Source of the DNA: an uncultured Chloroflexia bacterium
GTDB taxonomy: Bacteria; Chloroflexota; Limnocylindria; QHBO01
NCBI GenBank assembly: GCA_963695195.1
Contig: CAVOGE010000007.1
Location: 408,494 to 472,493, forward strand
Direction of reading: 5' to 3'
DNA length: 64,000 nt
The position numbers and the translations under genes were made by a program. Shown here piece by piece: positions 28,423 through 48,532 of this stretch (its first letter is position 1; each line of letters opens with the position of its first letter). The notes beneath the pieces are model-generated. The model was given only the letters and a program-made list of their open reading frames with translations, was not told where the DNA came from and did not search any database.

Positions 28423-29829
28423 ATGATCCGACGACACCTGATGACGCTGCGCCTCGCCCTGATGCTCGGCGACGGCGTCAGTGCGGCAGCGGTGTTCCTG
28501 ATCATCTCATTCCTCCGCTTCGGTGACGGGGCGTGGCTGGCGTTCTCCAGGCGCGGCATCGATCTCCGCCTTGCCGCCATCGTGTTCGGTATCGGCTGGG
28601 TGGTCACCCTGTGGTACCACGGGCTCTATCGATTGCGTGTCCGTCTGCAACTCCGGACCGAAGCGAAGGACATCGCGCGTTCGACGGTCATCTTCGCCGC
28701 GATCACGCTCGCTTCCCTCTTCGTGATCCACCGGGACGACGTCAGCCGGCTCTTCCTGCTCGCGATCTTCGTGGTCCAGCCGCTGGTCACCTTTGTTGAG
28801 CGCAGCCTCCTGCGCTTCGCATTCAGCAGCCTGCGTCGACGCGGCCACAACTTGCGCTACATGCTGGTGGTCGGCAGCGGACGGCTGGCGCAGGACTTCG
28901 CGGATCTGGTCGAGGCCCATCCCGGCCTGGGCATCCGCGTGATCGGCCATCTCGCGGTCCCTGGCGAGGGGAGCCCGGTGGTGACACGCCCTATCCTGGG
29001 CAACGTCGCGGAGATCGAGGATATCTTCCACGGCCGCGTGGTCGACGAGGTGGCCGCGTGTCTCGCGCCGGCGTCGGCCGGCCACCTGGAATCGATCGCC
29101 GCACTGGCCGCCGAGGAGGGCAAGACGGTTCGGATTCCGGTCGACCCGCACGCCGGCGCGATCCTGAACGCACGTGAGGAAGAGTTCGAGGGCATGCTCG
29201 TCCGGTCCCTCGTTCACGACGGACATCGCGAGGTGGGGCTCGTGATCAAGCGCGTGATCGACATCGTGGCAGCGGCTGCGGGGCTCATCGTGCTCAGCCC
29301 GCTGCTGCTCGTCACCGCCCTGGTGATTCGGCTGCGCGATGGCTCGCCAGTTCTCTTCCGGCAGACGCGCGTGGGGCTGCATGGACGGCCGTTTACCATC
29401 ATCAAGTTCCGCTCCATGGCTCCCGATGCCGAGCGGCGACTGCATGAGGTGGCGCACCTCAATGAGCGCCGCGGCGCGGCGTTCAAGGCCACCAATGATC
29501 CGCGCATCAGCCCGCTGGGCCGGATCCTGCGCAAGACGAGCCTCGACGAGCTGCCGCAGCTGTGGAACGTGCTCCGCGGGGAGATGAGCCTGGTCGGGCC
29601 GCGGCCGCCGCTCCCGTCCGAGGTGCTCGAGTACGACATCTGGCACCGCCGCCGACTGAGCATGAAGCCCGGCATCACCGGTCTCTGGCAGGTCGAATCG
29701 CGCCACGAGGCGAGCTTTGACCGCTGGGTCGAACTCGATCTCAGCTACATCGACCGGTGGACGCTCTGGCTCGACCTGAGCATCCTGCTCCGCACCATGC
29801 CGAGCGTGCTGATGGCCCGCGGGCGCTGA
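28423..29829 (+). CDS. undecaprenyl-phosphate hexose-1-phosphate transferase (WbaP/CpsE-type priming glycosyltransferase)
   Basis: N-terminal TM domain, central Rossmann-like domain, and the conserved C-terminal sugar-transferase domain (RPFTIIKFRSM...[21 protein letters not shown]...GITGLWQV). Confidence 0.9.
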   Translation: MIRRHLMTLRLALMLGDGVSAAAVFLIISFLRFGDGAWLAFSRRGIDLRLAAIVFGIGWVVTLWYHGLYRLRVRLQLRTEAKDIARSTVIFAAITLASLFVIHRDDVSRLFLLAIFVVQPLVTFVERSLLRFAFSSLRRRGHNLRYMLVVGSGRLAQDFADLVEAHPGLGIRVIGHLAVPGEGSPVVTRPILGNVAEIEDIFHGRVVDEVAACLAPASAGHLESIAALAAEEGKTVRIPVDPHAGAILNAREEEFEGMLVRSLVHDGHREVGLVIKRVIDIVAAAAGLIVLSPLLLVTALVIRLRDGSPVLFRQTRVGLHGRPFTIIKFRSMAPDAERRLHEVAHLNERRGAAFKATNDPRISPLGRILRKTSLDELPQLWNVLRGEMSLVGPRPPLPSEVLEYDIWHRRRLSMKPGITGLWQVESRHEASFDRWVELDLSYIDRWTLWLDLSILLRTMPSVLMARGR

Positions 29830-29923
29830 GGCGCCCTTGGTGTCGGGCTGGGAGTAGCACGCGATCAAGGCGCCCCGGGTCGCTTGCCTCCCTCTGTGTT
29901 CGTGGGACGCACGTTCGGGAGGA

Positions 29924-29947
29924 GTAAGCCACGCCAGCGTGGCTTAC
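29924..29947. terminator. perfect 10-bp-stem/4-nt-loop hairpin (GTAAGCCACG-ccag-CGTGGCTTAC) about 95 nt after the priming transferase gene
   Basis: Seen directly. Flanked by an inverted and a direct copy of the CCCACGAAC motif. Confidence 0.4.
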
Positions 29948-29948
29948 T

Positions 29949-30021
29949 GCGGCATCCCACGAACGCTGGCCTGCGTTTCTGGCTTCGTTACTGCAGAGCG
30001 TGCGCGCCACGAGCTTTGGCC
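29949..30021 (+). promoter_or_regulatory. 73-bp bipartite motif, copy A (box GCGGCATCCCACGAACGCTGGCC, 26-nt spacer, box GCGTGCGCGCCACGAGCTTTGGCC), 3' of the XRE gene
   Basis: Same-length unit with both boxes conserved relative to copy B at 30857..30929. The spacer has diverged. An inverted copy of the second box lies at 29898-29916. Confidence 0.5.
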
Positions 30022-30033
30022 CGGGTGGCCTCC

Positions 30034-30756
30034 TCAGCGCTGTCCGCGCGACCGCCCCACGCGCTGGCGCCCGGCTATCCATCGGGTCCGGCCGGCCGCG
30101 CCGGGCGGAATCCAGAGCAGCCATCGGTGATCACCCGCTGGCGCGCGCAGCCATCGTCGGATTGCGACCGCATCGATCTCGAAGCCGACGAAAAGTGAAG
30201 GGTGCTTTCCGACGCGCTCACGGTTGAGCGATGTGCCCGCGACGGCCAGCAGCGCCGAGATGGCCGCCGGATACCAGCCGCGGGCTCGGGCGATCGATCG
30301 CGCGAGGCGCAGGCGGACATTGAGCGAGCCGAGGAGCTGCTGCAGATCCACGAGATCGGACTTGACCTCGGCGACCACGAGGCTGCGCGTGGCCTGGTGG
30401 AATCCAAGGAGATCGATCCGGCCTCTGTCGCCCGACATGCTGAAGCTCGCCTCTGCCTCGACCAGCCAGCCGGCTCGCCGGAGGAACCCGGCCAGGTGTT
30501 CGACGATGGCCGCGTGCTCGTCGTCAAGGAGGTGCACCACCTCGCCCCCACGCCCGACCAGGCCGATGTCGGCGCGCAGACCGAGTGCGGCTGCGTGGCT
30601 GCGGATCGTGTGCAGGTGGAGCGAGGCGAGCTTGCCGGCCTCGATCCGCGAAATGGTCGATCGCGAGAGCTTCGCTTCGTCCGCCACGTCCTGCTGACGC
30701 AGGCCCTTCCGGATGCGGGCCATCCTTAGGACGCGGCCAGCGACATTGTCGTGCAT
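30034..30756 (-). CDS. XRE-family (Cro/C1-type HTH) transcriptional regulator with uncharacterised C-terminal domain
   Basis: N-terminus GRVLRMARIRKGLRQQDVADEAKLSRSTISRIEAGK is a textbook HTH_XRE. Start set at the internal Met (30756). The 5' half of ORF 30034..31335 is junk. Confidence 0.75.
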   Translation of the reverse strand: MHDNVAGRVLRMARIRKGLRQQDVADEAKLSRSTISRIEAGKLASLHLHTIRSHAAALGLRADIGLVGRGGEVVHLLDDEHAAIVEHLAGFLRRAGWLVEAEASFSMSGDRGRIDLLGFHQATRSLVVAEVKSDLVDLQQLLGSLNVRLRLARSIARARGWYPAAISALLAVAGTSLNRERVGKHPSLFVGFEIDAVAIRRWLRAPAGDHRWLLWIPPGAAGRTRWIAGRQRVGRSRGQR

Positions 30757-30856
30757 GCGGCGAGTCTGTGGGGCGGCCGTTATCGGCTCGTTACCCTCGG
30801 CTTGTGCCCGTGGTGCGCACGCTCCGCGTGGTGCCAGCCTGCGGATGCCCCGCAAT

Positions 30857-30929
30857 GCCGCATCCCACGAACGCTGACCGTGTAGGCGAGCGGGTCTGCC
30901 GGAGAACGTGCGCCCCACGAACGCTGGCC
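30857..30929 (+). promoter_or_regulatory. 73-bp bipartite motif, copy B, in the divergent XRE/ppa promoter region
   Basis: GCCGCATCCCACGAACGCTGACC, 26-nt spacer, ACGTGCGCCCCACGAACGCTGGCC. Ends 1 nt before the first candidate ppa ATG. Confidence 0.5.
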
Positions 30930-30930
30930 G

Positions 30931-31515
30931 ATGGCCAGCCCAACTCGCATACTGCTGGCCATGGCCGATGCGCATCCGATCCCCGTCCCGCGCGACCCGA
31001 TCGAAGTGACCGTCGAGATCCCCTCGGGCAGCCGCAACAAGTACGAGTACGACCACCGCAGGCATCGGTTCGTCCTCGACCGCGTTCTGTACAGCAGCGT
31101 TCACTACCCCTGCGACTACGGGTTTATCGAGGGCAGCCTGGCCGATGACGGCGACCCGCTCGACGTGCTGGTGATCATCAGTGAGCCGACCTTTCCCGGC
31201 TGCGTCGTGCGGGCGCGGCCGATCGGCGTCCTGGACATGAAGGACGACAAGGGCCACGACTACAAGATCCTGGCGGTGGCCAACGACGACCCGCGCTGGG
31301 AGGAGACCGACGCGCTGGAGGACCTGAGCCCGCACCGGCTACGCGAGATCGAGAACTTCTTCCGGACCTACAAGGAGCTCGAGGGCCGCCAGACCGATGT
31401 CTCCGGTTGGCTCGGGGTGGGCGACGCGTGGCGGATCATCAACTCGGCCCTGGAGTCAGGAGTGCGCGGCACCGATTCGGAGGGCGAGGCGGCCAGCCCG
31501 GGAATCTGGCGCTGA
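30931..31515 (+). CDS. ppa: inorganic pyrophosphatase (family I)
   Basis: EIPSGSRNKYEYD, DPLDVLVI and ILAVANDDP motifs. Start may instead be the Met at 30961. Confidence 0.9.
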   Translation: MASPTRILLAMADAHPIPVPRDPIEVTVEIPSGSRNKYEYDHRRHRFVLDRVLYSSVHYPCDYGFIEGSLADDGDPLDVLVIISEPTFPGCVVRARPIGVLDMKDDKGHDYKILAVANDDPRWEETDALEDLSPHRLREIENFFRTYKELEGRQTDVSGWLGVGDAWRIINSALESGVRGTDSEGEAASPGIWR

Positions 31516-47437: not shown

Positions 47438-48532
47438 ATGCCCAGGTCAGGGCCGGGCGGCGAGGCCGCCACGGTGGGGCGCCCACGGCTGCTGCTGCTG
47501 GCTATGTACCGCCTCGACGACGCTGCGAGCGGTCCGACCGTGCGGATCTCGGCGATCCGTGACGCACTCGCGGAGCGGGTCGATCTCGACGTCGTCTCGG
47601 GGACGCGCGCGGATCGGGCGGGAGCCCTGCTGCGCTATGCCGCGCGCGGGCGGCCGCGGGGCCTGGCAGGCATCTATGTCGAGAGCTCAACGAGCCTGCC
47701 CGGGCCGATCGATCTGACCTTCATGGCCTGGGCACGGACCCGCCGGATACCGGTGCTGACCTACGTCCGCGACGCATACCAGCTCTTCCCGGAGTACTAC
47801 CCGACGACCTCGCTGAAGCGTCGCCTTGCCCGCGCCGCGTTCCGACCGGCGATGCGAGCGCTGCGGCGCGCGTCGACGACGCTGGCGTTTCCCTCGCGCG
47901 GCCTTGCCCGGGTGGTGCTCGGCGCTGGCCCCGAGGCGGAGCGGGCGGTTCTGCTCCCGCCCGGTGCCCGACTGCCGGCCGTCGATCCGGTCGATCCAGC
48001 CGCGCGCGGCGTCCTGTACGTCGGGAGCCTCGCCCACGAATCGAGCGGTGGCTCGGTCCTGCTGGAGGGCGTTCGGCTGGCGCGTGAGCGAGGACACGCG
48101 GTCGAGCTGATCTGCGTCGCGCCGCCCCATGATCGTCCCCCTGGACCGCACCCGGGGTGGCTCAGAATGGTGACGGCCCGCGGGCCCGAGATCATCGGAC
48201 TGCTTCCGGAGGTGCTGCTGACGGTGTCACCTCGGCCGGCGACGGCCTACAACGACCTGGCGGTGCCGATCAAGGTGATGGAGTACCTCGGCTATGCCCG
48301 GCCGGTCGTGGTGACTGATGCGACCGAAACGGCCGCGATCGTGCGCGCCGCGGAGTGCGGACTGGTCGTCCCGGACTCCGCCGCCGGCCTAGCCGATGGG
48401 ATCGGCGCGATCGCCGGAGCGACCGCTCAGCAGATCGAATCGTGGGGAGCGGCGGCCCGACTGGCCGCCACGAACAACTCGTGGGGGGCACGCGCGGAGA
48501 GCGTTCTGCGCGAGCTCGGCGTGGCGGGCTGA
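47438..48532 (+). CDS. glycosyltransferase (GT-B, GT4-like)
   Basis: Starts immediately after the LCP stop. C-terminal half has GT4-like topology (VLYVGSLAHESSGG...PIKVMEYLGYARPVVVTD). Confidence 0.6.
   Translation: MPRSGPGGEAATVGRPRLLLLAMYRLDDAASGPTVRISAIRDALAERVDLDVVSGTRADRAGALLRYAARGRPRGLAGIYVESSTSLPGPIDLTFMAWARTRRIPVLTYVRDAYQLFPEYYPTTSLKRRLARAAFRPAMRALRRASTTLAFPSRGLARVVLGAGPEAERAVLLPPGARLPAVDPVDPAARGVLYVGSLAHESSGGSVLLEGVRLARERGHAVELICVAPPHDRPPGPHPGWLRMVTARGPEIIGLLPEVLLTVSPRPATAYNDLAVPIKVMEYLGYARPVVVTDATETAAIVRAAECGLVVPDSAAGLADGIGAIAGATAQQIESWGAAARLAATNNSWGARAESVLRELGVAG

Follow-up and report, generated by a model that had tools for sequence, protein, structure and literature searches.

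We analysed a 64-kb window (the whole stretch of DNA studied here, 64,000 nucleotides of contig CAVOGE010000007.1 from an uncultured Chloroflexia bacterium) in which one gene inside a glycan cluster is bracketed by two arrays of repeated boxes. The gene encodes a protein that joins an XRE-type helix-turn-helix (HTH) to a predicted PD-(D/E)xK nuclease fold, and is hereafter called the HTH-nuclease gene. It converges with a sugar transferase gene (Bac_transf) on its downstream side and diverges from ppa on its upstream side. Array, gene and array recur with other box sequences at many homologous loci, and are absent as one piece from a collinear glycan cluster in a related genome. The boxes are candidate binding sites for the protein encoded between them.

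Two tripartite repeat units around one gene

The features of the locus, by window position, are these:

29880 to 30021, forward strand: left repeat unit, downstream of the HTH-nuclease gene in the convergent gap with Bac_transf, defined by an offset-908 alignment with 30788 to 30929
29898 to 29916, reverse strand: left inverted box, GTTCGTGGGACGCACGTTC, with a CGTG-N5-CACG dyad; 95% complementary to 30904 to 30922 and in register with 30806 to 30824
29924 to 29947, no strand assigned: hairpin with a perfect 10-bp stem and a 4-nt loop, GTAAGCCACG-CCAG-CGTGGCTTAC; DNA fold -12.8 kcal/mol, z -6.8
29949 to 29971, forward strand: left box 1, GCGGCATCCCACGAACGCTGGCC, a near-copy of right box 1
29997 to 30021, forward strand: left box 2, AGCGTGCGCGCCACGAGCTTTGGCC, with a CGTG-N5-CACG dyad; its core lies 50 bp past the box 1 core
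30034 to 30756, reverse strand: HTH-nuclease gene, 240 amino acids; XRE-type HTH at residues ~7-60, PD-(D/E)xK fold at residues ~70-220, then a basic tail
30047 to 30070, forward strand: weak fourth box-like site, GACCGCCCCACGCGCTGGCGCC, within the 3' end of the gene, another 50-bp step along
30780 to 30805, reverse strand: conserved 26-nt element, CAAGCCGAGGGTAACGAGCCGATAAC, at -49 to -24 from the start codon of the HTH-nuclease gene
30788 to 30929, forward strand: right repeat unit, in the divergent gap between the HTH-nuclease gene and ppa
30806 to 30824, reverse strand: right inverted box, GCCCGTGGTGCGCACGCTC, with a dyad, in register with 29898 to 29916; an extra CGTGG core follows at 30827
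30857 to 30879, forward strand: right box 1, GCCGCATCCCACGAACGCTGACC, a near-copy of left box 1
30904 to 30929, forward strand: right box 2, GAACGTGCGCCCCACGAACGCTGGCC, with a dyad, 32-57 nt upstream of the likely ppa start at 30961

The preliminary description of this DNA reported two 73-nt copies, A (29949-30021) and B (30857-30929), whose conserved boxes flank a diverged spacer, with an inverted box and a perfect hairpin ahead of copy A. All of these are where it placed them. Box 1 is identical between the copies at 22 of 24 positions, the box 2 cores match, and a manual count on the offset-908 alignment finds 9 of 26 spacer positions identical. The copies are nevertheless only part of a larger repeat. 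They belong to two units of ~142 bp (29880-30021 and 30788-30929) that align at an offset of exactly 908 bp without indels, and the inverted box of the right unit had gone unreported.

Each unit is tripartite, with one inverted and two forward boxes. Measured from CCACG core to core, the forward boxes lie 50 bp apart and the inverted box lies 56 bp ahead of the first forward one. The cores fall at 29901 (reverse), 29957, 30007 and, weakly, 30057 in the left unit, and at 30809 (reverse), 30865 and 30915 in the right. Four of the six boxes are CGTG-N5-CACG dyads. The weak site at 30047-30070 overlaps codons of the conserved basic C-terminal tail and may be partly coincidental. The best 120-nt diagonal between the units holds 70 matches, against 52.9±2.0 (maximum 59) in 287 other window segments (z 8.5). 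A 16-mer core sought with three mismatches occurs 3 times against 2.3 expected, a count that is not significant alone, and all three occurrences are at this locus.

The protein between the units carries more than a DNA-binding domain. Its HTH (residues 7-60) matches HTH_31 at 41 bits (cut-off 27; 2e-10) and HTH_3 at 36.5 bits (cut-off 23), and adopts a five-helix fold that superposes on XRE operator binders, with matches to operator-binding dimers such as HigA2, HipB and C.AhdI. The C-terminal region gives only sub-threshold PD-(D/E)xK matches, to YhcG_C and, in homologues, to UPF0102 and MmcB-like models. In the predicted structure (predicted local distance difference test, pLDDT, 91), this region has the core alpha-beta-beta-beta-alpha-beta fold of the superfamily. 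Eight residues (H81, E102, G109, R111, G112, D115, E130 and K132) are invariant in 29 aligned homologues, down to 35% identity. D115 (in GRIDLL) and E130-x-K132 (in VAEVK) lie on consecutive strands of the predicted model, the aspartate on strand 2 and E-x-K on strand 3. Among the nearest folds are the element-associated nucleases XisH and R2 endonuclease. Because the catalytic residues are invariant and the model contains the PD-(D/E)xK strands, the product as modelled is more than a plain regulator: it joins the HTH to a nuclease fold whose active-site signature is intact. The XRE regulator of the preliminary description is thus right about the HTH and wrong about a simple regulator.

No model in Pfam, NCBIfam, PADLOC or PHROGs spans the whole protein. 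PADLOC and PHROGs match only its generic HTH, without a defence or phage association, the NCBIfam model couple_hipB reaches 37 bits against a cut-off of 71.65, and the protein has no Peptidase_S24 match. A profile search at E<=1e-30 nonetheless places at least 823 clusters (50% identity level) in the family. Its few named members belong to Candidatus Limnocylindria or Chloroflexota, as do the named relatives of the window's ppa. The clusters occur on 1-5 contigs each, none has a member in IMG/VR, PLSDB or INPHARED (viral, plasmid and phage collections), and the gene is single-copy in the 64-kb window, with no second paralogue.

Array-gene-array layout across the family

We retrieved 85 homologous loci (numbered with an L prefix) and set the flank upstream of each gene against the one downstream of it, using 55 non-redundant loci for statistics. 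Many loci have repeat arrays at both gene ends, and the box sequence is specific to the locus:

L001: GTGACTG-N9-TAAGCC, six copies
L006 and L007: GGATAACTTGCAC, up to seven copies
L037, L055, L077, L041 and L060: GATTCAC(A)
L040 and L065: CGCCTAAGG
L002, L008, L010 and L017: GCTATCTC.CAC or GATACSGCTCAC
L022, L023 and L038: TTCCACCCGCGG

L037, L055, L007, L040, L077 and L078 resemble the window in that a composite unit is repeated directly from one array to the other, at offsets of 834-945 bp. In the window, L001, L002 and L004, nothing but the gene lies between the arrays and no toxin gene adjoins it, and no restriction endonuclease or methyltransferase genes lie near it in the window or the homologous loci.

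The match between the two ends of a locus exceeds what unrelated flanks provide. On the 120-nt diagonal between upstream and downstream flanks, 15 of the 55 loci surpass the 99th percentile of cross-locus pairs, where 0.55 would be expected (Mann-Whitney p 9e-9), and 11 of the 55 lie above all 110 same-locus controls that pair a flank with the gene interior. Taken together, at least 11-16 of the 55 loci share the array-gene-array layout. Spacing is equally characteristic: direct 9-mers with at most one mismatch peak sharply at 49-51 bp in the flanks (407 hits, contributed by 13-15 loci, compared with 20 inside the genes), with minor peaks at 40-41, 60-62 and 100 bp. Sites set apart by whole helical turns would give just this pattern. 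In loci with longer flanks, the boxes are essentially limited to the gene ends.

Two other kinds of repeat were seen in these flanks. The downstream flank of L015 (+13 to +90 past the stop codon) carries short tandem repeats of 11-13 bp or multiples, as do L020, L067, L076 and L070; in L015 they are seven copies of GGCCGGCCCGTG, and such repeats give the 11, 22 and 33 bp peaks of the spacing histogram. L001 has an extra box at L001:6681, 1.9 kb downstream of the gene and beside serA, past two unannotated genes (325 and 217 amino acids) that are not in the syntenic L004. Either a later insertion may have split the downstream array, or this box may regulate those two genes.

Two synteny groups, one with the gene between FAD-monooxygenase/Lactamase_B and serA and the other with it between ADH and an aminotransferase gene, bear on how the arrays evolve. 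Neighbouring proteins in these groups are 72-88% identical and the HTH-nucleases 46-79%. Between species, the HTH-nuclease gene can still be aligned at its place, with lower nucleotide identity, and the intergenic arrays no longer can, yet both arrays of each locus still match one another. Since similarity is limited to the boxes and the spacers are at background, selection on binding sites explains the repeats better than recent duplication or gene conversion. A neutral duplication remnant, or units kept alike by gene conversion without any binding function, would account for the equal length and register of the two units without indels, and the promoter-like element of the right unit may have a degenerate counterpart in the downstream unit (TTAGCC-N18-GACACGG in L001, for example). 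We judge this origin very improbable: spacers as diverged as those of the window are unlike the product of recent duplication or conversion, genes are bracketed by other boxes at the same 50-bp phase in at least 11 independent loci, and the boxes are dyad-symmetric. The same layout, dyads and phase support the earlier suggestion that the boxes are probable protein-binding sites under selection.

Box type also goes with the recognition helix of the encoded HTH. SRE[LMS][VI]SR accompanies GATTCAC, SE[ST]..SRIEGG accompanies GGATAACTTGCAC, S.[AS].IGRHE accompanies GCTATCTC.CAC, and GIATVNRGEHG accompanies TTCCACCCGCGG. This covariation is consistent with direct recognition, and agrees with the earlier proposal that the encoded protein is the likely binder of the boxes.

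The preliminary description had allowed that the motif might be abundant genome-wide. Instead, the 13-16-nt box cores occur only at this locus within the 64 kb, and a search of 185,579 species genomes (596 Gb, evidently not including the source genome) with a degenerate 20-mer returned 17 singletons in unrelated taxa, about the chance expectation, none of them beside a family member. A dispersed genome-wide repeat was rejected on these two results. The mixture of inverted and direct copies with a hairpin does resemble clusters of repetitive extragenic palindromic (REP) sequences or bacterial interspersed mosaic elements (BIMEs). The window also holds one outlying box-like pair, GCCGCCACGAAC-AA-CTCGTGGGGGGCACGCG (48466-48495), which joins a forward core to an inverted box. 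This pair is 17.5 kb away from the module, within the 3' end of a further GT4 gene (47438-48532); two such hits were found in the window outside the module against ~0.4 expected, and the pair could be a distant target site or chance. A REP-type repeat or miniature inverted-repeat transposable element (MITE) unrelated to the gene is nevertheless hardly credible here, the more so as every homologue has its own private box.

Could the repeats act in RNA instead, forming terminators or attenuators in the untranslated regions at the 5' and 3' ends? The left unit gives this idea some substance. Its hairpin contains two inverted CCACG cores and is nested in an outer stem, in which the inverted box pairs with box 1. 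The resulting two-tier structure (29890-29975) folds at -26 kcal/mol (z -4.5) and lies 3' of two convergent genes. The equivalent segment of the right unit is not significant (z -1.7). Because the left unit folds significantly and the right does not, an RNA or single-stranded DNA structure common to both units is unlikely. Searching 29700-31100 with the Rfam 15 covariance models gave no match at E<=1, a conserved promoter-like element lies between the upstream boxes and the gene, and the presence of both box orientations with helical phasing suits recognition of duplex DNA. We accordingly give the RNA explanation very little weight. The left-unit hairpin probably serves both convergent genes as a local, bidirectional terminator; promoter and terminator scans of the region found no T-tract terminator.

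The promoter-like element is the 26-nt sequence ahead of the gene. Its pattern, [TC]AAGCCG-N2-3-GGTAA-N6-7-CGATAA[GC], is shared by the window, L001, L004 and L034 at a fixed distance (about -50 to -24) from the start codon, in loci that are otherwise divergent, and it is absent from the gene bodies and the antisense strand of the loci compared. It is a candidate core promoter or leader of the gene, perhaps for an unidentified sigma factor. Its GGCTTAC is also part of the left hairpin.

The module as an indel in the glycan cluster

The closest relative of the window's ppa (94% identity) lies on contig L103, in the same gene order: PIG-L, PLDc_N, Bac_transf, ppa, GT4, flippase, GT4, at 86-91% nucleotide identity. 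There, only 14 bp separate the Bac_transf stop codon from the ppa start, and both the HTH-nuclease gene and the arrays are missing. In a blastn alignment with the window, 91% homology stops at 29829, the Bac_transf stop, and restarts at 30990 at 86%; inspection of the ppa ATG region by eye (CTGCTGGCCATGGCCG vs CTGCCGCCATGACCG) places the restart near 30946. The segment so defined is:

29830 to 30946, no strand assigned: inserted module (array, gene, array), absent from L103; its right boundary is uncertain, within 30946-30989

Because L103 lacks the gene and the arrays and has its Bac_transf stop 14 bp from ppa, the whole module is a ~1.1-kb indel. It is most likely an insertion in the window's lineage, which is favoured, not proven, and no outgroup with the same Bac_transf-ppa junction was found. 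The indel spans 1.12-1.16 kb and runs from a 50-bp leader through the left array, gene and right array to a short tail, and the arrays lie ~50-68 bp from its left boundary and ~17 bp from its right. Its G+C content of 0.69 equals that of the flanks. When it is compared with other loci, the coding part alone finds matches, at 66-76% nucleotide identity; the arrays match nothing.

L103 is the orthologous locus without the gene that the preliminary description had proposed to look for as a source of insertion boundaries. It has neither gene nor boxes, it supplied those boundaries, and it favours the small inserted cassette that had been offered there as an alternative. It also shows that the same glycan cluster exists without the module. 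Elsewhere the family occupies unrelated contexts, such as those between FAD-monooxygenase/Lactamase_B and serA or between ADH and an aminotransferase gene. On these two grounds, a regulator dedicated to the glycan genes is not supported, and the operator and inserted-cassette ideas of the preliminary description are each right in part.

The ppa side of the junction has peculiarities of its own. Homologues of ppa are 178-184 amino acids long, which makes the ATG at 30961 preferable to that at 30931. Within 30931-30990 of the window, the first ~10 ppa codons (MADAHPIPVP) have no counterpart in L103 (MTARTR), and are in the insert or at its edge. On other Limnocylindria-like contigs, ppa is closely coupled to a different upstream gene; in L112, for instance, LytR_cpsA_psr precedes it by 31 bp. 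Another open reading frame of 386 amino acids, without a Pfam match and on the opposite strand, lies upstream of ppa at L109:2636-3796 and also in L110. We take these differing junctions to favour insertion in the window's lineage. The ppa-upstream junction may be a recurrent insertion point.

A segment that is present or absent as a unit invites comparison with mobile DNA. Under such an explanation, the module would be a compact or decayed mobile element, its arrays would be end-recognition sites, and the HTH-nuclease would be a nuclease, transposase or excisionase-like factor cutting at or near them. Several observations fit. The module comes and goes between genomes with 86-91% identical flanks, the PD-(D/E)xK catalytic residues are invariant, the nearest folds include XisH and R2 endonuclease, the arrays lie near the indel boundaries, and a different open reading frame has entered the ppa-upstream junction in L109/L110. 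L006 and L013 add a further hint: their Lactamase_B neighbours are 88% identical, their HTH-nucleases 51% and their boxes different, which hints at very fast divergence or at replacement of the cassette at the same site.

Against mobility, most loci have direct rather than inverted arrays, the L103-defined boundaries show neither a target-site duplication nor terminal (inverted) repeats, and the left 50 bp of the insert has no right counterpart. The window holds one copy, the family's clusters are on few contigs each, and the viral, plasmid and phage collections lack it. In the two synteny groups, the gene is at the same site across species, aligns in place and diverges in weak congruence with its neighbours, which indicates mostly vertical descent. 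The module also has no DDE, HUH or recombinase partner. On balance we think a mobile element, the main rival to the reading preferred below, unlikely, though it deserves to be kept in view.

The ends of Tn7 carry TnsB sites and the element encodes the PD-(D/E)xK protein TnsA; the ends of Mu carry L1-L3 and R1-R3. Like these, the module has several spaced binding repeats per end and is present or absent as a unit, and like Tn7 it encodes a PD-(D/E)xK nuclease. Unlike them, its ends are direct, it lacks a DDE transposase and a visible target duplication, and it has one copy in the 64-kb window and descends mostly vertically. XisH, the excision-controlling factor of the fdxN element (PDB 2okf), is only 17% identical to the HTH-nuclease, lacks an HTH and acts together with XisI and XisF, and no flanking repeat arrays are known for it.

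Restriction-modification genes reportedly enter genomes by "insertion with long target duplication", a process in which the empty site is said to keep one copy of the repeat. The module resembles these in having a nuclease-fold gene and ~100-bp direct repeats, and in being polymorphic between related genomes. This route was rejected, as the empty site in L103 holds no copy of the repeat unit and the repeats belong to the insert.

A broader speculation is that array-gene-array loci form an undescribed class of ~1.1 kb selfish or domesticated modules in Limnocylindria/Chloroflexota-type soil bacteria. One protein would bind and cut the arrays at its own ends, and so excise, move or replace itself, with a box and helix specificity private to each lineage. 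We regard this as rather improbable.

A proposed autoregulatory loop

The reading that we prefer, by a little better than an even chance, is that the boxes are cognate, helically phased candidate binding sites of the encoded HTH-nuclease, in a self-contained module closed by a bridged autoregulatory loop. That chance applies to the whole; we are more confident of the cognate sites taken alone, and less so of the looping. The two ~140-bp arrays, the left one perhaps with three forward boxes, would each be filled by the protein encoded between them. As 50 bp is about five helical turns, bound HTH dimers would lie on roughly one face of the DNA. Binding to both arrays would be cooperative, and oligomerising nuclease-fold domains may bridge them, looping out ~0.9 kb with the protein's own gene. 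Such a loop could give tight autoregulation, much as in lambda, where CI acts through the tripartite operators OL and OR to either side of cI. The hairpin of the left unit would probably terminate both convergent transcripts. That L103 shows the module coming and going as one piece supports this self-contained arrangement. The sequences show the architecture of the repeats and its recurrence in the family, the covariation with the HTH, the 50-bp phasing, the domain composition and the indel; from these we infer binding, looping, autoregulation and promoter capture.

The insertion adds a possible consequence for the neighbouring genes. If it cut ppa-GT4-flippase-GT4 off from the Bac_transf operon, these genes must now be served by a promoter within the right array or next to it. 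The right array may thus also overlap the promoter that drives this unit, and control of the ppa operon by the HTH-nuclease is plausible as a side effect.

Several points weigh against an autoregulatory loop. A protein regulating solely itself lacks an obvious purpose, and a pure repressor does not explain the invariant nuclease active site. No promoter would be expected at the left array, which occupies the convergent gap 3' of the gene; copy A is in that gap and not in a promoter. Region scans detected no sigma-70-like or consensus promoter. The orientation of the arrays varies, being direct in the window, L037, L055 and L007, and plus-plus-minus against plus-minus-minus in L001. Only ~20-30% of the family loci pass the ungapped flank test, and the others may have indels, weaker arrays or none. 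Finally, the covariation of helix and box is confounded by phylogeny, as close relatives share both.

Known regulatory systems resemble the module in part. In the lambda immunity region, the CI repressor gene lies between the tripartite operators OL and OR, which engage in long-range looping. Both systems place a gene with an XRE/Cro-C1-type HTH between two arrays of about three dyad operators, and bridging would autoregulate here as well. The module differs in its C-terminal domain, a PD-(D/E)xK fold in place of an S24 peptidase/oligomerisation domain. Its arrays, 0.9 kb apart, closely enclose one gene, and its boxes are spaced by 50 bp where those of lambda are adjacent. It also lacks a prophage context, having a sugar transferase gene and ppa for neighbours, and its family is absent from phage collections. 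The C proteins of restriction-modification systems and the antitoxins HigA and HipB likewise autoregulate through XRE dimers. In contrast to these, the module has no adjacent restriction-modification, toxin or partner gene, its HTH is fused to a nuclease fold, and a second array stands 3' of the gene. The parts are thus known (an XRE HTH, a PD-(D/E)xK fold, operator arrays), in an arrangement that we cannot assign to any named system, and full-text literature searches found no description of the family or of phased arrays bracketing a gene.

The module therefore stands as a compact, self-bracketing nucleoprotein architecture unlike any curated family. As a one-gene module most likely inserted in a polysaccharide operon, it would have rewired the transcription of ppa and of the glycosyltransferase and flippase genes that follow. 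If the arrays are what the nuclease acts on, the module would represent a minimal mobile or excisable element of a new type, in a phylum that has been little studied. And if the boxes are the protein's own sites, the family, at 823 clusters or more, would provide a natural series of matched recognition helices and operators, useful for reading and engineering DNA-binding specificity.

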